This document shows positions 78 to 56,527 of a stretch of 56,527 nt of DNA, one piece after another; positions within the stretch are counted from its first letter, which is position 1; each line of letters starts with the position of its first letter. The stretch is from Reclinomonas americana ATCC 50394 (Eukaryota). The position numbers and the translations under genes were made by a program. The notes under the pieces were generated by a model. That model searched no databases. It saw only the letters and a list, made by a program, of their open reading frames with translations, and was not told the DNA's origin. The DNA is taken from contig AFZH01020179.1 in NCBI GenBank assembly GCA_048213135.1, forward strand, positions 1-56,527, in the 5' to 3' direction.

Positions 78-237
78 TGTCCGTCGTCAGGACATTCGGC
101 GCAGATGGGGGCGTAAATTAGCGGAGAGCGGGCCTCGTCTGGGGGTTGAGCTTAGGCGGCGAGCTTGCGGTGCAGCAAGCGCCGATATTCGAGGGTCTGT
201 CGCTTGACCCTTTCGCGCTGCTTGATGATGGCTGCGG
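78..237 (-). mobile_element. Right-end remnant of an IS3-family element (same type as 35987-37529)
   Basis: Reverse complement is nearly identical to about 37370-37529 (end of orfB ...EYRRLLHRKLAA*, 3' UTR and terminal IR). Starts with TGTCCGTCGTCAGGA at 78. Confidence 0.9.
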
Positions 238-26700: not shown

Positions 26701-29245
26701 CGGCCTGGACACCCATCCGTTTCTCGCAGGCCACGTCGTGGATGGCGCAATTGTGCTCCCGGCGGCCGCGCAAGTCGCCATGCTCGCGCGAGCTGCTAGC
26801 GAGATCGGTCTGGGAGAGCGAGTCGATCTCAAAGACGTCGTCTTTCGCCGACCCATCGTCCTGAGCGAGCGCGCGTCGACACTGCAGGTGGTGGCAAGTG
26901 TTCAAGCGCGCGCCGTTTCGCTCGAGATCGCCGCTTTCGACGCCGCCTCGGGCGACTTCGTGACTTGCTGCACATGCGAGGCCGCGACGGCTGACGAGAC
27001 CGCCCTCTTCGAAGGCGCGCCACCCAAGGATCTCGTCCGAACGGAGCCCGTAGTCGCGCTCTACGACGAGCTTGAACGGCGAGGTCTCGAATATGGTCCT
27101 TCGTTCCAGACCGTGACCGACCTGCGCGAAAGTGGTGCGACCACCTACGGAGCCTTACGCGCTGCGGCCGCGACCCCGACCGATGACGAGAGCAGGTTGA
27201 CGGTCATGCTCGACGGCGCCTTCCACCTGCTCGGCGCTGCGGATGGCGCCGACCGGGAGACCGGACTGCTGATCCCCGCTGCGATCAGGCGCCTGCGGAT
27301 CCACTCCGCCTGTCCGACGCAGGGTTGCAGCTGGGCTCGGCTCCGTGATCGAGCCGCTCGCCTGAGAAAGGCCGACGTGGTCCTGCATGGCGATCGAGGC
27401 CCGGTGATCGAACTGGAAGGGCTTGCTCTCGCAGTGTCCAAGGTCGGACCTCGGCGAGCGCAGCCTCTGGATCTCAAGGCCTATGAATCCGTCTGGCGTG
27501 CCGCTCCCCTCGACCACCTGATCGAATCCGGCGATCTGGTGCTCGTCGGCTCATCGGCCTTCGCAACGGAACTGGCGGCAGCGGCGCGCGCCTCGGGCGT
27601 CGAGGTCGCCTCGATAGCGCTTCGCACGGAAGCCGGCGACGGGCTCGATCCGGCCTGCCCGATCGATTGGAGAGGCCATCTCAGACGCGCGGCGTCAGTG
27701 ACGCCCGATGCCCGCGCGCTCGTCGTACTTCTCGACGATCTGTACGACGAGCTGACGACGCGGTGGGCGCAGTCCGCGCGGATCGCCGACGTCGTGCGCG
27801 CGGCGCTCCAAGCCGCGCCCTACGCTCCGTTCCAGTCGACACCGCGCCTCTGTTTCGTCAGCCGAGGTGCGGTCCGCGCCCTGCCTGACGACCTGGTGAC
27901 GAGCCCTATCGCAGCGATAGCGCATGGGCTTGCGCGCACGGCCCATTTCGAAGCGCCGAGCCTGAACTGCCTATGCGTGGATCTCGACGCCTTCGCGACT
28001 TCGGAGCGACAAGTCTCTCAACTACTGGCGGAGCTCGCCGGCGGTTCGACCGAGAGCGAAGTGGCGCACCGAGGCAGCGCCCGCATGGTCCGGCGCGTCC
28101 ATCCTCTCGACCTGCGCTCAGCCGATGTGACTGCCGCTTCGGTAACCGGTGAAGGGGCATACCTCGTCACCGGCGGCGCGGGCGCTCTAGGAGCTCTCGC
28201 CATCTCTTGGCTCTGCGAACAAGGCGCGGGGCGCGTGATTTCAGTCGGCCGCTCCGAGCCGTCGGAAGCCTGGAAAGCGATGCTCGAACCCCACCAGGCG
28301 AAGATCACTCACCTCTGCGCGGACATCGGCGACCGCGAGGCGCTACGCTGCATCGTCGGCGACTTGCCCGACGGCATGGCGCTCAAGGGCATAGTACATG
28401 CTGCAGGTGTGATCGAAGACGGTCCACTGATGTCGCTCTCGTCGGAGAGTCTGCAGCGAGTGCTTCGGCCGAAGGTGGATGGTGTCGAGGCGTTGTGGGA
28501 GACCCTTGCAGACGGAGATCTCGACTGGATCGTCCTCTATTCGAGTGCAGCATCGGTGCTGGGTTCGCCGGGACAAGCAAACTATGTGGCCGCCAACGCC
28601 TATCTGGATGCCTTCGTCGACTTCGCGCATGGCTCGAAGACCCGCGTGATCGGTTGCAACTGGGGGCCTTGGGCGGATCTCGGAATGGCGCAGGCCATCG
28701 ACGGCTCGAGCGCCCTCTCGGGAATCTCTCTGATTCCGCCTGAGCACGGGATGCATGCGCTATCTCGGATGCTGGAATCGACCGCGGACCATGCGATCCT
28801 TCTCCCGTTCGACTTGGAGAGCCTGGTCCAATACTACCCCGAAGGTCCCGGATTTGCGCTGTTCGAGGATCTTCTCGCGGGTCCGGGGCTGAACCTCCGG
28901 AGTGCGGGAGATCGTCTGACAGTGTCTCGGCGGCCGGATCTCGACACGCAGTTCGTCGAGCCTTCGACGCCGGTGGAACGCCTCATTGCGGGGATGTGGA
29001 GCCGCGCGCTCGGGATCGACCGGATCGGTCTGCACGACAACTTCTTCGCGCTCGGCGGGGACTCGGTCTTGGGGAATCAGATCTTCATCGAGATCAGCAC
29101 CGCGCTGGGCGTCACCATCTCGCCGGAAGAAGCCTTCGAGAACCTCACGGTCCATGAACTGGTGTCGCTTGCCGAGCGTCGCGCCGCGGAAATGCTCGAC
29201 GAAATGGACGATGAGACCCTTCGTGAACTCGCCGGGGCACAGTGA
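23777..29245 (+). CDS. Single-module type I PKS: ACP-KS-AT-DH-KR-ACP, no TE
   Basis: GLDS (ACP); DTACSSS/HGTGT/NIGHLE (KS); GHSVG/YAFHS (AT); HPFLAGHVVDG..VLP (DH); TGGAGALG/HAAGVIED/YVAAN (KR); FFALGGDS (ACP). Confidence 0.93.
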   Translation: MQRGELEEWLVARLATKTGLTPASIALDEPLSSFGLDSEAILAMTGEISERLERDVDPTIFFSYPTVSSVSAYLCSSLIGSHRRTSERRTDQVGDPVAIVGLACRFPGAPDKTAFWDLLNEGRSAIEDRGADRWASSGASSEELRKIARAGFLDGVDLFAAEFFGIRSEEARRMDPQQRLLLEVAWEALQDAGIPTTRIKGSSCGVYVGISTNEYGKRQTEGLDAVGAMTGTGAALSIAANRLSYMFDLRGESVAVDTACSSSLVALGMAVRALRRGDSETALVGGVNLLIDPEISWGMAQAGMLSPNARCRTFDEQADGYVRGEGCGVVVLKSLAAALRDGNQIYALVRGVAVNQDGRSNGLTAPNALAQQDVVRKALEDAGVAAADVAYVEAHGTGTPLGDPIEANALGVVLADAAAPVGVGSVKTNIGHLEAAAGIASVIKTALSIRHGSVPPTLNVETLNPKITAPNLRVATQGWRLPATGEARICGVSSFGFGGTNAHAVLSGAPSLGARTGAPALEGSVLVPLSAGSEAELRAFAQHLATVVETTGAPPSAVAQILGNKRDLLSARTGIVASDGADLARQLRSTSARAVIAKSARAPRIAFVFAGQGSQTPQMARELWRAEPLAASIMRRCDEVVRDVAGWSLRDALMGEPDRFADTAVLQPCLVAYGIALFELYRSRGLEPTRVLGHSVGEITAAYAAGAITLEDAMLIACRRGSAMASTAGQGAMLAVQATAEEAARFVEEGVIGLAATNAPTEIVLSGARGPLERVQAASRAEGRHVAWVNETYAFHSHQMSDAALAVEAALAGLDPLDGSVGFISSVVGDLLPGSALTPQYWRRNVVETVRFAEAVDKLSAVDLVIEIGARPVLQRSMRDVLPGEVSVISSSRPGSNEHRAWLSSLAEAFERGCALKYGTGEPRLDPGEMPVPRLPQERYWLERRTASQGAGRGLLGRRLRLAPVAGVHVWEAELGLDTHPFLAGHVVDGAIVLPAAAQVAMLARAASEIGLGERVDLKDVVFRRPIVLSERASTLQVVASVQARAVSLEIAAFDAASGDFVTCCTCEAATADETALFEGAPPKDLVRTEPVVALYDELERRGLEYGPSFQTVTDLRESGATTYGALRAAAATPTDDESRLTVMLDGAFHLLGAADGADRETGLLIPAAIRRLRIHSACPTQGCSWARLRDRAARLRKADVVLHGDRGPVIELEGLALAVSKVGPRRAQPLDLKAYESVWRAAPLDHLIESGDLVLVGSSAFATELAAAARASGVEVASIALRTEAGDGLDPACPIDWRGHLRRAASVTPDARALVVLLDDLYDELTTRWAQSARIADVVRAALQAAPYAPFQSTPRLCFVSRGAVRALPDDLVTSPIAAIAHGLARTAHFEAPSLNCLCVDLDAFATSERQVSQLLAELAGGSTESEVAHRGSARMVRRVHPLDLRSADVTAASVTGEGAYLVTGGAGALGALAISWLCEQGAGRVISVGRSEPSEAWKAMLEPHQAKITHLCADIGDREALRCIVGDLPDGMALKGIVHAAGVIEDGPLMSLSSESLQRVLRPKVDGVEALWETLADGDLDWIVLYSSAASVLGSPGQANYVAANAYLDAFVDFAHGSKTRVIGCNWGPWADLGMAQAIDGSSALSGISLIPPEHGMHALSRMLESTADHAILLPFDLESLVQYYPEGPGFALFEDLLAGPGLNLRSAGDRLTVSRRPDLDTQFVEPSTPVERLIAGMWSRALGIDRIGLHDNFFALGGDSVLGNQIFIEISTALGVTISPEEAFENLTVHELVSLAERRAAEMLDEMDDETLRELAGAQ

Positions 29246-35986: not shown

Positions 35987-36071
35987 TGTCCCCCGTCAGC
36001 ACCGATGGCACAGATTTGAGGTTGTGAACTAAGGAGGATCTGGGCTTCGTCGCAGTGACGAAGGAACGAAG

Positions 36072-36458
36072 ATGAAGCCCAGATCCTCCAACGTGAAATT
36101 GCCGGCGAAGGCCCCTGCGGAGCAGGTGGTGAAGGACATTCGGCGACAGACGCGGCGCCACTTCTCGGCCGAGGACAAGATCCGCATCGTGCTCGAGGGC
36201 CTGCGCGGTGAGGACAGCATCGCCGAGCTGTGCCGCAAGGAAGGGATCGCCCAGAGCCTGTACTACACTTGGTCGAAGGAGTTCATGGAGGCGGGCAAGC
36301 GCCGCCTGGCCGGGGACACCGCCCGGGCCGCGACCACCGGCGAGGTGCAGGACCTGCGCCGCGAAGCCCGCGCCCTGAAGGAATGCGTGGCGGACCTGAC
36401 GCTGGAGAACCGTCTGCTCAAAAAAAGCATGATCGCGGATGGGGGCGACGACGCATGA
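36072..36458 (+). CDS. IS3-family transposase OrfA (HTH)
   Basis: RRHFSAEDKIRIVLEG..SIAELCRKEGI..YY.W motif, ends near A7G. Confidence 0.9.
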   Translation: MKPRSSNVKLPAKAPAEQVVKDIRRQTRRHFSAEDKIRIVLEGLRGEDSIAELCRKEGIAQSLYYTWSKEFMEAGKRRLAGDTARAATTGEVQDLRREARALKECVADLTLENRLLKKSMIADGGDDA

Positions 36459-37455
36459 GGTACCCCGCATCCGAGAAGCTGGAGATCATCAGGATCGTCG
36501 AGCAGTCGCACCTGCCGGCCAAACGCACGCTGGACCAGCTGGGCATTCCCCGTCGGACCTTCTACCGCTGGTACGACCGCTACCTCGACGGCGGGCCCGA
36601 AGCCTTGGAGGACCGGTCCTCGGCGCCGAGCAGGGTGTGGAACCGCATCGGCGACGACATCCAGGGTCAGATCGTCGAGATGGCGCTGGAGCACAGCGAG
36701 CTGTCCCCGCGCGAACTGGCGGTGCGATTTACCGATGAACGTCAGTACTTTGTCTCCGAGGCCACGGTCTATCGGCTGCTCAAGGCCCACGACCTGATCA
36801 CCAGCCCGGCCTTCGTGGTGATCAAGGCCGCCGACGCCTTCCACACCAAGACCACGCGGCCGAACCAGATGTGGCAGACCGAAACGAAGTTCGGCGAAGC
36901 CACTTTACCTACTTCAAGATCATCGGGTGGGGCTGGATGTATCTGTCGACCGTGCTCGACGACTTCTCGCGCTACATCATCGCCTGGAAGCTGTGCGCCA
37001 ACATGCGCGCACAGGACGTCACCGACACGCTGGACCTGGCCCTGGCGGCTTCCGGCTGTGACAGCGCCAAGGTGCTGCACAAGCCCCGGCTGCTCAGCGA
37101 CAACGGCCCCAGCTACATCGCCGATGAGCTGGCCCAATACATCGAGGCCAACAAGATGAGCCATGTGCGCGGCGCCCCGATGCATCCCCAGACCCAGGGC
37201 AAGATCGAGCGCTGGCATCAGACCTTGAAGAACCGCATCCTGCTGGAAAACTACTTCCTGCCCGGCGACCTGGAGGCCCAGATCCAGGCCTTCGTCGAGC
37301 ACTACAACCACCAGCGCTATCACGAGAGCCTGGCCAACGTGACCCCGGCCGACGCCTACTTCGGCAGGGCCGCTGCCATCATCAAACGGCGGGAACGGCT
37401 CAAGCGGCAGACCCTCGAATATCGGCGCTTGCTGCACCGCAAGCTCGCCGCCTAA
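36455..37455 (+). pseudogene. IS3-family transposase OrfB (DDE) frameshifted by a 20-bp insertion
   Basis: Removing 36882-36901 restores QMWQTDFTYF. SDNG and GKIERWH motifs lie downstream in another frame. Confidence 0.85.
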
Positions 37456-37529
37456 CATCAACCCCCAGACGAGGCCCGCTCTCCGCTAATTTACGCCCCC
37501 ATCTGCGCCGAATGTCCTGACGACGGACA

Positions 37530-38069
37530 GCGCAAGGTCGCCAGCAGATGCGGTGAGAGCAGCGCGTCACGGTCGCGCCGACCCTTGCCCTGTTCGACCC
37601 GAATGCGCATGCGCTGGCTGTCGATGTCGCCGACCTTCAGGCCCACGACCTCGGCGGCCCGCAGGCCCGCGCCATAGGCCACACTGAGCGCGGTGCGCCA
37701 CTTGAGCCCCGGCGCCGCCTGCAACAGCCGCGCGACCTCGTCCGGCGTCAGCACGACCGGCAATCTCTGCGGCTGGCGGGCGATCGGGATGTAGTCCAAG
37801 GCCTCTGGCCGCTTGAGCGTCACGCGGAAGAAGAACCGCAGCGCCACCATCGCGCCGTTGATGCTGGCTGGGGCCAGGCCGCTTTGCGTCAGGTGCAGCT
37901 GGTAGCGCCGCACATCCTCGAACGTCAGCTCGCCCGGGGTCCTGCCGCAGTAGCGACTGCAGGATCGAACCGCTCGGATGTAGGTCTCTTGGGTCCGCGG
38001 ATCGAAGTTGCGGAGGGTCATGTCTTCGACCATCCTGCGACGCAACGGGTGGATCGCTTCTTCGGGCAT
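37530..38069 (-). pseudogene. Tyrosine recombinase (type usually paired with IS91-like transposases), C-terminally truncated by the IS3 element
   Basis: PLRRRMVEDMTLRN...TQETYIRAV N-terminus, LPVVL..EV, YGAGLR..E, GKG..DR. The HxxR and Tyr region is missing. Confidence 0.85.
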
Positions 38070-38076
38070 CACTCGT

Positions 38077-38127
38077 CTCCTGTCTTGAGGAGGACGTGGC
38101 CGACCCACGCTCCTCTTCAGACAGGAG
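38077..38127. promoter_or_regulatory. Long imperfect hairpin covering the recombinase RBS
   Basis: Nested arms CTCCTGTCT/AGACAGGAG, GAGGAG/CTCCTC, CGTGG/CCACG. Confidence 0.65.
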
Positions 38128-38393
38128 GATCCCGATGTTCCCCAGCACCGAACAAATGCCCCTCCCGCGCGAGCGGGTTAGTACATTGGCGCCTATCGGT
38201 CCGATGCGTGGCCGCATTAGCCGGCCGGCCGCCCGGTCAACCACAACCGCTATCGCCGCCCGGTCGCCCCATTCAGCTTATCAGCCGGCGGACACACGCA
38301 ATTCCGCCTTTGCGAGAGCGCCGTCGCCCTTTATCGGCATACTTGTCTCGCTCGTCTTGATTGGTCATGATCCCTTCCGGGGGTAGGGCGAGA

Positions 38394-39881
38394 ATGTCGA
38401 AAGAAATCGTTGATGCCGCGCGCGTGAGCGGCGATTTGACCAACATCTTTTGTCTGGGGCCGTTCGCGAAGCGCGTGAGCTTCAGCGCCCAGCAGACGAG
38501 AGCGCTAAACCTAGTCTGGGCCCTCAACGAACAGAACGAGTTCAGTTCTGGCAACAGCGTGGCGGTCATTGGCGCGGGGGTCGCCGGAGTCACGGCCGCG
38601 GCGGCCTTCATCGCCTATGGATGCAAGGTCGATCTTTTCGAGGCTGCGCGGCGATCGATGCATCGGCAAAGGAAGACCGACCACCGGATGGTCCATCCGA
38701 CCATCAATCTCTGGCCCTTCCAGGAACCGTCCCTGACCGCCGATGGTCCCTTCCTGGAATGGCACGCGGCCAAGTGCGACGAGATTATCACCAACCTGTC
38801 GGACCAGTACGACCGATTGAAGGGCGACAACCGGCTGCTTGAGGACACCACGGTCACGGACATCTATCCGGTGGCCACCAAACTGCTCGCCTTGAACACT
38901 TCCAACGACGCCCAGGGCGAACAGACCTACGATCTGGTGCTGCTGGCGGTGGGGTTTGGCCACGAATATCCCGGCGAGGATTTCGAACACACGGACTACT
39001 GGCTGCCGGATGGCCTGGACCAGATCCGAAACGAGCCGAAGCGCGCCAAGACCGACGTCATCATCAGCGGCTGCGGCGACGGCGGCCTGATCGACGCCTT
39101 GCGGGTGGTGCACAGCAAGTTCGATCGCGGTCGTCTAGTCTTCTCGACCGCCTCGGCGCTGGTTGGCACCGAAATCGAGGAGAGCATCCGAAGAGGCGAG
39201 CGGGCCGCGCGGATCGCTAATGACGCGTCTGGCCTGGCCGCAGTCTATGAGGCGGCGGCTGAGGCGCTGGTGACCAAGCCCGAATATGCGACGTTGGATC
39301 AAAAGCTTCGCGCCTCCTTGATCCGACCGCCAGTCTTTCTGGTCGATAAATTCCTGAGCGCGCCATACTCGTTGTGGTCTGCGCCGATCCATAAACTGAT
39401 GATCGCTCACGCCCGGCGCTGTGGCTTCATCATTTTCTACAAGAGCGATGTGTCACGCCAAACAGACACGGATCGTATCAGGGCTGGTGACCGGTCGTTC
39501 GCCGCTGAGCCCGCCTCCAAGGTGGTGATCCGGCACGGCGCCAAGCCGAAGTTCGAACGCCTGATCGGGGATGCGGCGATCGCCGAGCTTGAGACGCGAA
39601 TGAAGGTGTTCGCCGATTTCCATGCCGATCGAAAGTGGCCCGACGACTACCCGCTTCCGCCAGGCGTGGCCCGTTATGAGATCGGGACGCCGGCCTTCAT
39701 GGAAAGCAAGCGAAAGCTGGCCAAGCGGGCGCTCAACGCGATCTCTCCCGACGCGGACCTGTCTCCTCGCGGCGCGGGCTTCGTCGTTCAGTGGGAAGAC
39801 GAAATTCCGCCCGACGCGCCCAAGGCTCTGTTCCGGGTAAAGGTCGAAAATGAACTCGTGCCGCCGGCGTTTGGCCTATGA
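38394..39881 (+). CDS. FAD/NAD(P)-binding oxidoreductase (FMO-like, resembling defence-effector type)
   Basis: QQTRALNL, VAVIGAGVAG and second dinucleotide motif ISGCGDGGLID. Confidence 0.7.
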   Translation: MSKEIVDAARVSGDLTNIFCLGPFAKRVSFSAQQTRALNLVWALNEQNEFSSGNSVAVIGAGVAGVTAAAAFIAYGCKVDLFEAARRSMHRQRKTDHRMVHPTINLWPFQEPSLTADGPFLEWHAAKCDEIITNLSDQYDRLKGDNRLLEDTTVTDIYPVATKLLALNTSNDAQGEQTYDLVLLAVGFGHEYPGEDFEHTDYWLPDGLDQIRNEPKRAKTDVIISGCGDGGLIDALRVVHSKFDRGRLVFSTASALVGTEIEESIRRGERAARIANDASGLAAVYEAAAEALVTKPEYATLDQKLRASLIRPPVFLVDKFLSAPYSLWSAPIHKLMIAHARRCGFIIFYKSDVSRQTDTDRIRAGDRSFAAEPASKVVIRHGAKPKFERLIGDAAIAELETRMKVFADFHADRKWPDDYPLPPGVARYEIGTPAFMESKRKLAKRALNAISPDADLSPRGAGFVVQWEDEIPPDAPKALFRVKVENELVPPAFGL

Positions 39882-40696
39882 AGCGACGGGTCTCTCTCCA
39901 GATTGGCCAGGCGCTGCGAACCCGCTCGGGCGTGGGCCAATGTCGCGTGGGCGCTGTGGTGCTCGACAAGGATGGCCGAGCCCTGGCCTTGACCGCGCGA
40001 CATCCGCTCTGGGCCGATCCTGAAGCGACGGTGTTGGACGCAGCGTCCGGTCAGGCGATTGGCGCGCGCCTTGAGCTGTCGCCGGCGGCGCTGACGGACG
40101 CAGCGTCGCCGCCATTCCATACGACGATCGGCGCGGTGCTGCTCGACGGCGACATCGACTATACCGAGGCACTGACGACACCGGCCGCCGGTGCCTACGC
40201 CACGGTTGAGGACCTGCGAGACAAGACCATTGTCAGCGTCGGTGCGGGTGATGCGGCCAGCGGCGTCGTCGTGGGCGTTGGAAGCGTCCGTTTCCTGGAT
40301 CCCTTCAGCGACAATCGCGTGAGGATGTCGGACGCAATCGAAATTCGCGTCGACTGCGGCGATCCGTTCCAGCGCGGCGAGGCCGGGTTGCTCTTCGTCG
40401 ACCAACTCGGCGCCGCCGTGGGCCTGCTCATCTCATCGGGCAAGCCAGGCCACGGCTACTTGGCGCCCTTGGCCAAGTTGCTGACGATCAACGGCCTGAA
40501 GTTCGCTGGCGACAGCGCCTTGCCCCTGTCCCTGGATAACGGTGGCGCCGACTTCGTTCTTTTGCTCGAAGCCCAGTTAGATCGGCTAGGCGAGACGAGC
40601 GCCGTCATGCGGCGAGCGCTCGAAGCCGAACCCAGCATGCACAGGGATCCGAGCGGTCAGCGGGTTCCGGAAAAACTCATGGCCCTTCTGGACTGA
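39878..40696 (+). CDS. Trypsin-like (S1) fold protein, probably catalytically inactive
   Basis: LTARH His motif is present, but GEAG replaces GDSG. ATGA overlap with the upstream gene. Confidence 0.55.
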   Translation: MKRRVSLQIGQALRTRSGVGQCRVGAVVLDKDGRALALTARHPLWADPEATVLDAASGQAIGARLELSPAALTDAASPPFHTTIGAVLLDGDIDYTEALTTPAAGAYATVEDLRDKTIVSVGAGDAASGVVVGVGSVRFLDPFSDNRVRMSDAIEIRVDCGDPFQRGEAGLLFVDQLGAAVGLLISSGKPGHGYLAPLAKLLTINGLKFAGDSALPLSLDNGGADFVLLLEAQLDRLGETSAVMRRALEAEPSMHRDPSGQRVPEKLMALLD

Positions 40697-40700
40697 CGCG

Positions 40701-43250
40701 ATGACCCTGGAGCCAGACGAGCAGGAGCGCGTAGCGCGAAAGATCTTGAGCTTGGTTGATCTGAGCCGGGATCTTGAACGGAATTTCGACGACAGCAGCT
40801 TTGCTAAGAACGGCGGCGAAATCATCTATGTCGTCGATGAAAACATCTTCGAGATGTTCCTCCGTCCCCATCGCCATCACGAGGCGGTCGAGACCTTCTA
40901 CGGTGAGGTCTGGGGTTCGGGGGGGAGCGCGGATCCAAGTTGGCGCCGGTTCGAGACGCAGGCTGCGATGATCGCCGCGGAGTTCCTGCTCTCCGGCGCC
41001 CTCCCTGGCGCCCGTGATGGAGTGGTCTACGTAACCGAACCGCATCGGTGGGAGCTCGCCGACCGGCTGGAAGTCGTGACCGGCGAGTTGCGGGGGCAGA
41101 TCGAGCAAGATCGCAGCCGCGTCGCCGAGGAGCTGCGCCGCAAGTTGGCGGTGTTCAGCCCAGGCGAGGTGGACAAGGAGACGCGATCAAGCCTGGCCGA
41201 TGCAACCCTGGCCGGCGACATGGCTAAGCTAGCGGCGGCGCAAACCCCACCGGCATTGCTGGAGCAGATGCGCTTGGCGCGCGGGGCTGCGGCCGTGCTG
41301 GCGGCCTCGGAACTTACCGAGCCGCTGGATCAGCTCCGAAGGCTCGTCTCCCAACCGCTGCGACGCCAGGTTCACTCCCTGCAGGTCGAGTTTCGCCCCA
41401 GCGAGCGCGACGTCAAGGCGATCGAGGAGGAGGCGGCCGGTTGGTTTGCCCTGCTGGTCGAGGAACTCAAGCAGGTCGGTCACCAGTCCCGGCAGCGCGC
41501 CAAGCGCGAGGAGGCGGGCCGGTCGCTTTGGAACGATGCGCGGTCGATCGCCTATCTGCGGTGGGTCTCAAGGCGACTGAGCGCCAATCAGCGCCTGGTG
41601 TTCGTCACCGGTGACCCGGTTCTTTTCGACGCCTATCGACGCTGGCATTCCAACCCGGAGGCAAAGCCTGGGTCATCGACCAAGCCCTCGCCGTCCAACG
41701 AGCCGTTCTTCATGAGGCGAGCGGTTCAGTTCAGTCCGATCTTCAATCCCAACGATATCGGCGGCGATCTCAGCCGCGGCCTCGACGGCGCCAGCGAGCG
41801 CGCCGTCCTGTTCTCGCTGATCCAGCAGGCGGTCGAAGCGACGCTGGTGTCGTTCAGTCTTGTCCAGGCTCAAGCCGTAGCCAACGCGTCCGACGGCGTG
41901 TTCAGCCGTCATAGAGAGCGGTTGGCGCTCAAGCTCGTCGAGCATGTGAGGGTGTTGAGCGATCCGGAGCTGTCGACCTTGCGCCAGCTCATTCAAAGCG
42001 ACCGCGTCGCCGAGCAGGGTCAGAAGCTCGATGAGATCCGCGACAATTGGCAGGAGTTGCACCGGCTGGCCATAGGCGCGTCCTACGAACTGATCATGCC
42101 GCGAATGAACGAGAAGGAGATCCGCGCCTTGGCGCCGGCGATCAACGCCGCCGCGCACGACAACGGCGCGGCCCTACAGGCTTATGCGGCGGAGATCATC
42201 GACAAGATCGTCAACGAGAGTCTGCACTTCTTTCTGCCCTTGGCTGAAACCATCATCGCCGGCGGCGCAGCTTCGGGCCACCCGCAGCGCTGGCCCAAAC
42301 GGCTCAATCTCGCGCTGCAACTCGACGATGAATCCCTGCGTGGTCAGCTCGGCCCCACCCAGCGCAACCTGCCGCCAGAGATGATCTTCGCGATCGCGGC
42401 CAAGCGCAGCCTCGAGCTGCAGGACGTGAACAATGCGGAACGGTTCTCGAGCCTGGCTGTCCGGGCCGACGACAGCGCCCGCATCCGTGATGGCGGCCTG
42501 CCGGGTTTTGCTTCCGAATTGCGCTACCTGAGCGCTGTCGCGCAAAGGTATCTGATCGCGACGGTGCGCGAGCATCTTGTCGGCAACGCGTCAGGCGAGC
42601 CTGATGCGCTCGCCATTATGCGCAGCATCGATCAGGTCAAGCTGACTTATGGCCGATCAGCTCAGCAAATCCACGCCTGCCTTTCCACCCATTTCTCATG
42701 GAACGACAGGCCGACGGCCGAGGACGCGAAGGGCCACCGCATGCGCTATGTGCGTGCGTTGTCCGAACGCGCGGCCCTAAACCTGTTCATGGCCACAAGC
42801 TTGGGACTTTCCGAGCCGCTGGCCGGGGACCAGATCCAGTCCGACGCACTCGCCTACCTTGACTTAGCACGAGGCGACCTGAAGCTCGCCGTCAACGAAA
42901 TGGACCGTATTGGCGAGGCAGATCCGATGTTGGAGGCTGTCAGCGAACAACTCATCCCCAACATCGCCGCGGCCGAGGTCCTGCGTTGCCTGCTGATCAG
43001 GGGCGAAGACTACCGCTTCGACACCTCCACCCGCGCGCAACAGCGGGCCATAGGGCGCTTCGCCATGGCTCAGAAGACGCCCCACCCACTCCTGGCCGCG
43101 GAACTCGAGGCCTTCTTCTTCCTGGCGGGCTGGCAACCGACAGATTTCAGACCGTGGGGGGAGAATGAGCGAATGAACGCTCAGGTCGCCAAGGTGCGCC
43201 TGCCGCTTGATCGGACATTGCTGAAGCGGATTCGCAGCGAGATCATCTGA
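40701..43250 (+). CDS. Large hypothetical protein with split PIN-like motifs and helical C-terminus
   Basis: YVVDEN, NDARSIAYL, VFVTGD acidic motifs. Confidence 0.6.
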   Translation: MTLEPDEQERVARKILSLVDLSRDLERNFDDSSFAKNGGEIIYVVDENIFEMFLRPHRHHEAVETFYGEVWGSGGSADPSWRRFETQAAMIAAEFLLSGALPGARDGVVYVTEPHRWELADRLEVVTGELRGQIEQDRSRVAEELRRKLAVFSPGEVDKETRSSLADATLAGDMAKLAAAQTPPALLEQMRLARGAAAVLAASELTEPLDQLRRLVSQPLRRQVHSLQVEFRPSERDVKAIEEEAAGWFALLVEELKQVGHQSRQRAKREEAGRSLWNDARSIAYLRWVSRRLSANQRLVFVTGDPVLFDAYRRWHSNPEAKPGSSTKPSPSNEPFFMRRAVQFSPIFNPNDIGGDLSRGLDGASERAVLFSLIQQAVEATLVSFSLVQAQAVANASDGVFSRHRERLALKLVEHVRVLSDPELSTLRQLIQSDRVAEQGQKLDEIRDNWQELHRLAIGASYELIMPRMNEKEIRALAPAINAAAHDNGAALQAYAAEIIDKIVNESLHFFLPLAETIIAGGAASGHPQRWPKRLNLALQLDDESLRGQLGPTQRNLPPEMIFAIAAKRSLELQDVNNAERFSSLAVRADDSARIRDGGLPGFASELRYLSAVAQRYLIATVREHLVGNASGEPDALAIMRSIDQVKLTYGRSAQQIHACLSTHFSWNDRPTAEDAKGHRMRYVRALSERAALNLFMATSLGLSEPLAGDQIQSDALAYLDLARGDLKLAVNEMDRIGEADPMLEAVSEQLIPNIAAAEVLRCLLIRGEDYRFDTSTRAQQRAIGRFAMAQKTPHPLLAAELEAFFFLAGWQPTDFRPWGENERMNAQVAKVRLPLDRTLLKRIRSEII

Positions 43251-43546
43251 AATGAACGCCTCGGATCTTGATCAAGAGCGGTCTTCAACTGCCGCCACCA
43301 AATACAAACGAATGCGTTGACGCTAGACGTTGATGCTCACCATGATTGCCGCGACATGAAGCTGCCCGCAGAAGGATGCCCTCTATGTTTTGGCGCATCG
43401 ACATGGCTTCCGCGCCGGGGTGAGACAGGACGTCAACGACCATGGCAGACGACAAGGGAATCCGCCTCGGACATTACGCTCGCGACCGCAACCTCGAGAA
43501 GGATCCGGTCAAGGCACCCGGGGGCGTCCGGTAAAACGCGCCGACG

Positions 43547-43589
43547 AATGTCCGCTTGCTGGAGCTGACCCAACGGCAGCTCGTGGCGC
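43547..43589 (+). repeat. Conserved intergenic bipartite motif, copy 1
   Basis: AATGTCCGCTTGCTGGAGCTGACCC-AACGGCAGCTCGTGGCGC. Confidence 0.75.
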
Positions 43590-47250: not shown

Positions 47251-47522
47251 TGGCTTGCGTCCAATGATAAGGTGGCTTTGGGGCCGTCGAGGTGAATGTG
47301 GTCACGCCGCCGGCCGCCGGCTCGGTCGAGATCGATGACACGCCGCCTCCCCCGAAACCAAGCTGAAGTTAGTGATATTCCCGCTAGAATTGCAAGATTG
47401 ACGGGCTAAACCAAAGGGCGTCATGCGCGCCACCTTGAAAGCGGCGCCAGTGAGAGGGAGTGCCTCGGAATTTGCCCGCACAAGCGGTCGCATACGAAGT
47501 CTCTCGGCACGCCTGGCTCATG

Positions 47523-47565
47523 AATGTCTTATTCCTGGAGGCAAGCAAACGGCGGCTCCTGGCGT
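47523..47565 (+). repeat. Conserved intergenic bipartite motif, copy 2
   Basis: AATGTCTTATTCCTGGAGGCAAGCA-AACGGCGGCTCCTGGCGT. Confidence 0.75.
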
Positions 47566-49611: not shown

Positions 49612-49647
49612 CCGACTAAATGGCGCTGGCTCTCTCACCTGTTGTTC

Positions 49648-49686
49648 AATGTCCCGTTTCCAGAGGTGCGCCAAGGTCGGCTCCTG
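49648..49686 (+). repeat. Conserved intergenic bipartite motif, copy 3, left part (interrupted by IS110; right part GGCGC resumes at 51034)
   Basis: AATGTCCCGTTTCCAGAGGTGCGCC-AAGGTCGGCTCCT|GGCGCGG after removing the IS. Confidence 0.75.
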
Positions 49687-49747
49687 ATGCCGTGGACGGC
49701 TCCCCACCCAGGTCGCAGGCTATGTGCGGCCGTAATGGAGGAGCGCC

Positions 49748-50776
49748 ATGGAAGAGGTGGTCACGGTGGGATTGGACATCGCCAAGTCGGTGTTTCGGGT
49801 CCACGGAGTCGATGCTGCGGGCCATGTGGTCGTGCAGCGCAAGCTCACGCGAGCGAAGCTTATCCCGTTCTTTGAGAAGCTGCCGCGCTGTCGGGTGGGG
49901 ATTGAGGCCTGCGCCACAGCACATCACTGGGGTCGCCGGCTGACTGAGCTGGGCCACGAGGTGAAGCTGATGCCGCCTTCCTACGTGAAGCCCTATGTGA
50001 AGCGGCAGAAGAACGACGCGGCTGATGCCGAGGCGATTTGCGAAGCTGTGACCCGGCCGACGATGCGTTTTGTCGAGGTGAAGGCCCCCGAGCAGCAGAG
50101 CGTGCTGGTGATCCATCGAACTCGGATGACCCTGATGCGTCACCGGATCGAGCTTTCCAACACGATCCGGGCTCACCTAGCCGAGTTTGGCCTGGTGGCT
50201 CCGATCGGCCGGATGGGGCTGCAGAGCCTGGTAGAGATCATTCGCGACGAGACCGATGAGCGGGTGCCGGTGAGCGCGCGGATCTGCCTGAAGTTGCTGG
50301 CTGACCAACTCGACCTGGTGAACCGCCAGGCGCTGGAGACCGATCGACTGACCCTAGCGAGCGCGCGGGCGAGCGATGTGGGCCGCCGGCTGATGGCCGT
50401 TCCCGGCATCGGCCCCGTGCTCGCTAGCGCAATCGTGGCCAGCGTGCCGGATCCACACGCCTTCAAGTCTGGTCGAAACCTATCGGCCTGGATCGGCCTC
50501 GTGCCCAAGCAAAACTCAAGCGGCGGTAAGGAGCGGCTCGGCGGCATCACCAAGCAGGGCAACAGATATCTGCGCCAGCTGTTGGTGGTCGGCGCGCTCG
50601 CCGTTATCCGCTACGCCGAACGACACGGGTCGAGGCGACCCTGGCTCCTGCAGCTGATGGCGCGGCGGACCACGAAGGTCGCCGCGGTGGCGCTGGCCAA
50701 CAAGAACGCCCGCATGATCTGGGCGATCATGACCAGCGGCGAGGCCTATCGAGAGCCGCAGCTGCAAGCCGCGTAG
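49748..50776 (+). CDS. IS110-family transposase/recombinase
   Basis: GLDIAK, IEAC, KNDAADA (DEDD) and SSGGK motifs. Confidence 0.95.
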   Translation: MEEVVTVGLDIAKSVFRVHGVDAAGHVVVQRKLTRAKLIPFFEKLPRCRVGIEACATAHHWGRRLTELGHEVKLMPPSYVKPYVKRQKNDAADAEAICEAVTRPTMRFVEVKAPEQQSVLVIHRTRMTLMRHRIELSNTIRAHLAEFGLVAPIGRMGLQSLVEIIRDETDERVPVSARICLKLLADQLDLVNRQALETDRLTLASARASDVGRRLMAVPGIGPVLASAIVASVPDPHAFKSGRNLSAWIGLVPKQNSSGGKERLGGITKQGNRYLRQLLVVGALAVIRYAERHGSRRPWLLQLMARRTTKVAAVALANKNARMIWAIMTSGEAYREPQLQAA

Positions 50777-50829
50777 AGATCAGGCGCCAACGGCGTCGGA
50801 CCAGTTTGGGAAGGGCGACGAAGGAGTGA

Positions 50830-51000
50830 TGTGATCCGGTCGAACCGGGAAGCGGGAAAACCCAACGCGCCATCGTGCTTCAAAGCACGTGCTTTTGGTC
50901 GGGACCTAGCTTCGCGGAGGGCATCATGGCCAGCGGCCCATGCGCCGCACCAACAGGTCGAAGACATGGCCGCACCGACCAGCTGTCACAGAACTCTCAG
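50830..51000 (+). ncRNA. Predicted seek/bridge RNA of the IS1111-type element (ends approximate)
   Basis: Four 7-nt segments match the target and donor junctions (50866-72, 50891-97, 50920-26, 50962-68), with internal hairpins between each pair. Confidence 0.6.
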
Positions 51001-51285
51001 ATCAACCTTGCCAACGGGGAGCCGTCCAGACATGGCGCGGATCGCCCGTCGAGCCGTACCCGTCGCGCGATGGGGCAAAAGGGAGAGCCGCCTAACCTGT
51101 GACGGACCAAGTCAGAGCGTAGGCGTCGCTCGGCCCAGCGGCTTCGTCGAGTTGAGGGTGTGCCTCCCAGTTTGCCAGTGTCGGCTCGTCGCTAAGACCC
51201 GTTTTGCTGAGAACAGCAGCCAACGCTGCGTTGTTGGGGTGGCAGGTCACTGCGAGCTGGCCCCGGGGACGCTCCCCGCCGGCGC

Positions 51286-56509: not shown

Positions 56510-56527
56510 AACGGCCGCTTCTGGCGC
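56510..56527 (+). repeat. Conserved intergenic motif, copy 4 (right block only, at window edge)
   Basis: AACGGCCGCTTCTGGCGC. The upstream AATGTC block is not conserved. Confidence 0.65.

Follow-up and report, generated by a model that had tools for sequence, protein, structure and literature searches.

Remnant of a probable IS91-like element targeted to a cassette-junction site within an integron-like Caulobacter-type array

Positions 37530–38186 of the window, by which we mean the whole stretch of 56,527 nucleotides analyzed here (a complete bacterial contig within the 108-Mb Reclinomonas americana ATCC 50394 assembly), are probably the surviving terIS-side end of a targeted IS91-like element that inserted in a cassette-junction site. 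The element is more likely a passenger in an integron-like array than the enzyme that operates it. Comparison with relatives shows that the intact element consists of a tyrosine recombinase gene and then an IS91-family Y2/HUH transposase gene (~2.54 kb in total), and inserts in one orientation between the dinucleotide NN and the TG of a ~48-bp cassette-junction site common in Caulobacter. After insertion, the left half of the site lies at the oriIS-like end and TGGCGC at the terIS-like end. In the window, the remainder of the element was lost in an IS3-linked deletion (feature coordinates are listed in Table 1).

The recombinase is transcribed away from the array, as the first-pass annotation of this DNA had described, from an ATG at 38069 on the minus strand. 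The fragment retains the SAM-like domain and the first catalytic part (matches to PF13495 at residues 9–88 and PF00589 at residues 106–176), and its reading frame breaks off behind codon 180, where it meets the IS3 element (37529/37530). The nearest intact relative, in Caulobacter sp. BE264 (L006), is 288 aa long with 98% amino acid identity, and carries HxxR at 228 and a TSVY motif at 260. Because the HxxR and TSVY residues are missing and just 13 of 540 nucleotides differ from L006, the window copy is dead, as had been claimed, and recently broken. The IS3-family element lacks a target duplication, indicating that the missing DNA was lost by deletion or rearrangement. We found no Y2 transposase in the window, in line with the earlier proposal that it had been lost at the IS3 junction, and a search of the rest of the assembly for the remainder of the element gave only 74%–83% relatives.

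What is missing from the window can be read from relatives. Among 79 loci from species genomes, taken from the best 80 of 184 confirmed stretches, an IS91-family transposase gene lies directly behind the recombinase gene in 74 of the 77 with room to tell and is absent in three (two more were too short), placing the window recombinase in the IS91-associated type to which it had first been assigned. The transposase of these relatives scores 434 bits against the NCBIfam IS91 model NF033538 (cut-off of 125), and copies share ~2.5 kb with no similarity outside it. The best NCBIfam match of the intact recombinase is the integron integrase TIGR02249, at 196.6 bits and thus under the cut-off of 265, and its best PDB match is IntI4 (2a3v). 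The IntI-specific insertion is missing, with residues 181–208 of the intact enzyme aligning where IntI4 spans 179–247.

Intact copies also clarify the geometry of insertion. Directly ahead of their downstream end (TG-TTTAGG...) comes the left half of the motif seen at 43547 in the window; such left halves stand before the far end at 11 of 11 ends in genome G002 (12–42 bits, against a 99.99th percentile of 0.6 in the window) and at four of five in genome G001. Given these far-end left halves, the hybrid junction in the window, correctly recognized in the first-pass annotation as element sequence joined to the right half of a repeated site, is what any copy leaves when splitting a site between NN and TG. 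The further suggestion that 38160–38200 is a primary, attI-like insertion site is not supported, because the far end of intact copies abuts the left half of a site and these copies lie between empty sites inside arrays. G002 has 12 or more element copies, with 12 full-length recombinase genes, and on its contig 15 five copies alternate with three co-oriented empty sites, one of which is upstream of all five; at least six element ends are present in G001. The presence of multiple copies, their alternation with empty sites, and a 159-bp non-autonomous element made up of just the two ends and inserted in a site likewise (G002 C11:94186–94345, L104) argue for a targeted insertion sequence rather than a lone integrase at an array head. 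A pre-insertion allele with both neighbors was found for none of the element copies.

At the ter side, the window reads GCGGGTTAGTAC-AT-TGGCGC at 38173–38192. TGGCGC by itself is common, with 127 copies on both strands of the window; it is the comparison with homologues that, despite this, supports the junction as real. Against 16 close copies, the window has a mean identity of 0.99 in the final 20 nucleotides of the element, 0.22 in the two that follow, 0.78 in the hexamer, and 0.35 and 0.30 further out. We compared 63 distinct flanks, picked by an end pattern that demands a hairpin and a tetranucleotide, such that copies without this end are uncounted; the tetranucleotide is GTCC in 38, GTAC in 23, and GTGC in 2, with the hairpin alongside in 63 of 63. 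TGGCGC is exact in 11 of these flanks (0.11% expected per random position), and a looser YGRCN[CGT] hexamer, defined post hoc once the flanks had been inspected, is present in 37 of them (2.8% expected per random position). According to the available text of PMC13181058, the terIS of the IS91 family comprises one subterminal palindrome beside a cleavage tetranucleotide, with GTTC, GTCC, and GTAC among the tetranucleotides. As its hairpin and tetranucleotide match such ends, 38164–38184 is best read as a terIS, and the boundary of the element is to be placed at GTAC (38184), rather than at TGGCGC. The alignment of upstream regions had been predicted to show conservation stopping at TGGCGC; it stops instead at GTAC. 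The outcome named beforehand as refuting did not occur: homologues do have a TGGCGC-like core at their ends and are found within arrays delimited by the site. Contig depth in two metagenome runs drops steeply at each of the two element ends.

The window itself carries further sites of the same kind. A profile built from G002 element flanks alone detects those at 43584, 47560, and 49685 (Table 1), whereas none of 30 shuffled sequences gave a match at 17 bits; a lower-scoring match, of 14.8 bits at 28911, was lost with later profiles. This profile was rebuilt from close copies because targets are genus-specific, and a mixed-genus 36-column profile gave no window site above chance. A candidate site near 51170–51200 was rejected, as it did not score and the true right half lies at 51033. 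Relatives of the IS110-type element, about 75% identical, use the same TG in seven of seven copies with both ends visible. Among the cargo are matches to defense models (LmuA-like, subtilase, and MBL-fold). For the first cassette, neither an empty allele nor a homologue was detected in 301 family-level genomes at the DNA level, where an intergenic piece of 87 bp was the sole match, or in metagenome contigs at the protein level. Upstream of the array nothing survives in the window, its head having been deleted, and an Rfam scan of 35000–56527 found nothing. A tight site pattern run across the window's own assembly matched only 43560–43589 and missed a site on contig C8904, and so does not amount to a census.

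Table 1. Coordinates of the element remnant, its IS3 neighbor, and the cassette sites in the window
Feature	Position	Strand	Basis or remark
IS3-family element	35988..37529	+	Right end cuts recombinase; left end cuts peptidase-C39/ABC transporter gene
Element tyrosine recombinase, 5' 180 codons	37530..38069	minus	HxxR and catalytic Tyr region absent; intact form 288 aa
Element leader up to terIS-like end	38070..38184	no strand	Long inverted repeat covers recombinase ribosome-binding region
terIS-like end	38164..38184	+	CCCGC-GCGA-GCGGG hairpin (38164-38177), TTA, GTAC (38181-38184)
2-nt spacer AT, variable, carried with element	38185..38186	+	Comparison of copies
TGGCGC, right half of element-split cassette-junction site	38187..38192	+	Comparison of copies
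First cassette	38187..43583	+	ORFs of 506, 272, and 849 aa; first matches PADLOC LmuA model (6.7e-62)
Intact empty site, TG at 43584	43542..43589	+	47.9 bits, G002-flank profile
Intact empty site, TG at 47560	47518..47565	+	34.3 bits, G002-flank profile
Site left half, split at TG by IS110/IS1111-type element	49643..49686	+	G002-flank profile, 30 bits at 49685
IS110-family element	49687..51032	+	13-bp subterminal inverted repeats at 49693-49705 and 51016-51028
TGGCGC, right half of IS110-split site	51033..51038	+	Junction comparison
Partial site, inner box and TGGCGC, at contig end	56508..56527	+	Top inner-box score in window; outer box unmatched

The cassette array is real and mostly independent of the element recombinase. 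At E ≤ 0.01, a site model, trained on sites partly from G002, has matches in 78 of 101 genomes of the genus Caulobacter (57 of them at E ≤ 1e-6) and none in G003 or G004, two genomes from outside this sample; the element recombinase matches nine of the same 101. Together with the 12 or more copies per genome, this difference speaks against the idea that the enzyme runs the array. We located 62 sites in 13 regions of 10 genomes, with a single orientation within each of the 11 multi-site regions; the 13 regions were chosen for having sites and the profile was refined on those sites, making the constancy of TGGCGC partly circular. None of the 11 multi-site regions contains the element recombinase, some arrays reaching the edge of the fetched sequence, and eight of the 10 genomes with fetched array regions have no match to it. 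Two cassettes are shared between genomes: one of 606/609 bp with the same boundaries in G002 and G311, and one of 1.81 kb, 93% identical, which has an element on either side in G001 and an empty site on either side in G367, its downstream-end NN being identical in both. Both start at TGGCGC and finish at NN, which is the insertion point of the element. Accordingly, the NN|TG crossover of Caulobacter cassette arrays is fixed by three independent markers, namely the element, the IS110-type element, and the common cassettes. An all-against-all comparison of the array regions yielded few other cassettes in common that are bounded by a site at each end. The attC core GTTRRRY was found near the crossover in only one of 73 sites, and attC-like folding of the sites was not supported, with z-scores of −0.85 to +0.83 for eight strands and a consensus fold of four pairs without covariation.

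The two bases next to each element end behave differently from the element itself. Ten G002 copies differ in 2 of 2,546 columns, yet have eight left and six right dinucleotides. The G001/G367 pair shows the left NN remaining with the cassette upstream, so it is the right NN that the element carries along and that changes from one hop to the next. Right dinucleotides occur among the left ones of the same genome in 27 of 32 copies versus 20.0 after permutation (p = 0.0007, with copies not independent), and by type in 12 of 15 versus 8.9 expected (p = 0.036), pooling that omits L007, a divergent copy in G002, and one G001 end with an internal duplication. A strict rule, by which the right NN of a child equals the left NN of its parent, failed for the one remaining copy in G004, which was predicted to have TC on the right or AG on the left and in fact has TC on the left and TT on the right. 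Hand-over of dinucleotides is therefore at most partial, mixed, or heteroduplex. Ori-side flanks (n = 30) read (G)CT-NN-TG with variable NN, and an IS91 target tetranucleotide (CTTG/GTTC/GTCC) is not present beside the ori end in any of them. We infer a mechanism, to which we give an even chance, in which the HUH transposase would nick after GTAC at ter, as it does in IS91, and form a circle that includes the two flanking bases, and the element recombinase would join this circle to a cassette site, the common sequence being NN-TG only. Such a circle would explain both the missing target tetranucleotide and the changing 2-nt spacer. An ori-ter circle joint was found in none of four assembled metagenome runs, a search in which contigs drop rare forms and the best runs contained 6%–8% of the window's words.

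The HUH transposase could instead select and cut the site alone, with the recombinase resolving multimers or being regulatory. In favor of this, the element has an ordinary IS91-type end at ter, and a resolvase role for the IS91-associated recombinase has been suggested in IS reviews. However, the ori-end neighbors are GCT-NN or CT-NN-TG, not CTTG/GTTC/GTCC, and both flanking dinucleotides vary among near-identical copies, whereas a single fixed nick would keep one constant; we consider this explanation unlikely.

Two further readings give the element a role in building arrays, and under the preferred reading of a targeted insertion sequence this would be at most a secondary one, in that the element may capture cassettes at the ter hybrid after insertion. 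The broader is that a parallel cassette system, based on non-attC sites, operates in Alphaproteobacteria and that the HUH-plus-recombinase element is its mobile capture platform, an IntI-related enzyme recombining dissimilar sites that share only TG, the ter junction serving as a portable attI, and rolling-circle read-through exporting defense cassettes. We think this quite unlikely; if true, the element would offer a living model of the step from the IS91 recombinase to IntI. Integrons, In0, and CALIN elements are given as none among 243 alphaproteobacterial genomes in the available text of Cury et al. (PMC4889954). The narrower reading, that of a mobile integron platform, equates the ter-NN-TGGCGC junction with attI, at which the IntI-related recombinase would add cassettes for export by rolling-circle read-through. 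The geometry is indeed that of intI/attI, the intact enzyme has its best matches in an integron integrase (below cut-off) and IntI4, cassettes and element use one crossover point, two short G001 contigs consist of cassettes between two element copies, and IS91 reads beyond terIS in 11%–53% of events (available text of PMC13181058). Nonetheless, element copies are internal and multicopy, eight of 10 array genomes are without a recombinase match, the enzyme has no IntI-specific insertion, and a second IS family parasitizes the same point, which together make this reading very unlikely.

A better candidate for driving the arrays emerged from the recombinase scan of array regions: a 208-aa tyrosine recombinase consisting of the catalytic domain only, with 26% identity to the element enzyme over 159 residues. 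This protein matches 32 of the 101 genomes (14 near full length), with no match in some site-rich genomes (G243, G273), and an atlas look-up returned generic phage-integrase clusters only. We fetched 30 loci from 51 matches and added two from the window's own assembly (copies include L125:2991–3614 and L169, G000:C8904:7550–8173). A site lies 77–96 nt past the stop codon in 13 of the 25 loci with room to tell, and 60–150 nt ahead of the start in several others. An intact copy (95% amino acid identity) with a 55.6-bit site behind it lies on contig C8904 of the same assembly as the window, possibly from another cell. The earlier suggestion that the array may be frozen is thus doubtful and is no consequence of the dead copy. 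Association with sites makes it more likely that the 208-aa recombinase shuffles the arrays. That the same enzyme integrated the element circle as a hitch-hiking cassette is highly improbable: the crossover point is the same as for cassettes and G002, with its 12 copies, has an intact 208-aa gene, but the ends being joined have NN-TG alone in common with the site and neither of its two boxes, and G001, with at least six element ends, has no 208-aa match.

IS91-family elements with an upstream tyrosine recombinase form a subgroup in ISfinder, with ISAzo26, ISShvi3, and ISWz1 as examples. The targeted element described here resembles them in its gene order, from recombinase to Y2 transposase, and in missing the IntI insertion; unlike them, it targets a non-attC site in Alphaproteobacteria, at one position and in one orientation in many copies, with a swapped 2-nt spacer. 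The recombinases of IS91 elements are the closest homologues of IntI and are without its insertion (available text of Smyshlyaev et al., 10.1101/542381), and an IS91-type element with a recombinase has been reported beside an attC site (available text of PMC9229058). In literature searched without most subscription journals, we found no description of site targeting by the recombinase-bearing subgroup or of these Caulobacter arrays. Like IS91, IS801, IS1294, and ISCR, the element has an IS91-family transposase, a hairpin and GT(A/C)C at the upstream end, and no terminal inverted repeats; unlike these, it has an extra recombinase, a long specific target, and no CTTG/GTTC-type ori target. Because no target tetranucleotide lies beside oriIS, the element is an IS91-like variant rather than a canonical member of IS91.

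The arrays share with integrons and CALINs co-oriented sites, most of each site lying 5' of the crossover, site-precise cassette ends, and defense-like cargo, often without an enzyme nearby. They differ in having no GTTRRRY core, no stable hairpin, and no IntI insertion, and the Caulobacter cassettes are multi-gene, in both orientations. Of the features that define an integron, co-oriented site-precise cassettes were found, and an IntI with its insertion, a single integrase at the array head, and attC sites were not; the element is thus no integron, and the array around it behaves in an integron-like manner. IS1111-type elements are mentioned as invading attC sites in the available text of PMC9229058. 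Similarly, both the studied element and the IS110-family element of the window parasitize cassette sites, although the former, as an HUH enzyme plus a tyrosine recombinase, belongs to another enzyme class. A candidate job for the recombinase in some IS91-like elements would be to steer the element into cassette recombination sites. No claim here is based on the unpublished genome G282.

Several smaller observations concern the element, its targets, and its surroundings. The ori end is tandemly duplicated in L006 (16 nt) and in L197 (G001:C11; about 68 nt). Elements at the Bradyrhizobium-type loci L031–L084 have a related target of more palindromic form, which often recurs about 40 nt onward; host groups seem to differ in target sequence. 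In the ter flanks of L032, L084, and L077, what we take to be group II intron-like ends lie directly at the element ter junction. Gene-less cassettes were seen as pairs of sites 114 bp apart (G306 2781878–2781992 and G166 C44 195080–195194). Immediately ahead of the 43547 site, the intergenic piece of 87 bp (window 43459–43546) is 91% identical to a G248 stretch, also located after a gene end. The window (56522–56527) and contig C8904 (L169) both stop exactly after the TGGCGC of a site, and these contig ends could reflect alternative junctions in the sample. A second IS3-end piece of 160 bp (94%) lies at window 78–237, inverted relative to that at 35988–37529, and the two bracket a large PKS/peptidase-M3/luciferase-like biosynthetic cluster. 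A sigma-70 consensus scan of 37900–38500 gave no match, and this consensus may not suit Caulobacter promoters. Ahead of the recombinase start, an RNA hairpin (window 38060–38140, minus strand; z of −4.95) covers the AGGAG and is kept with different sequence in L006, L020, and L042 (z of −3.5 to −4.8), possibly acting as a brake on translation.
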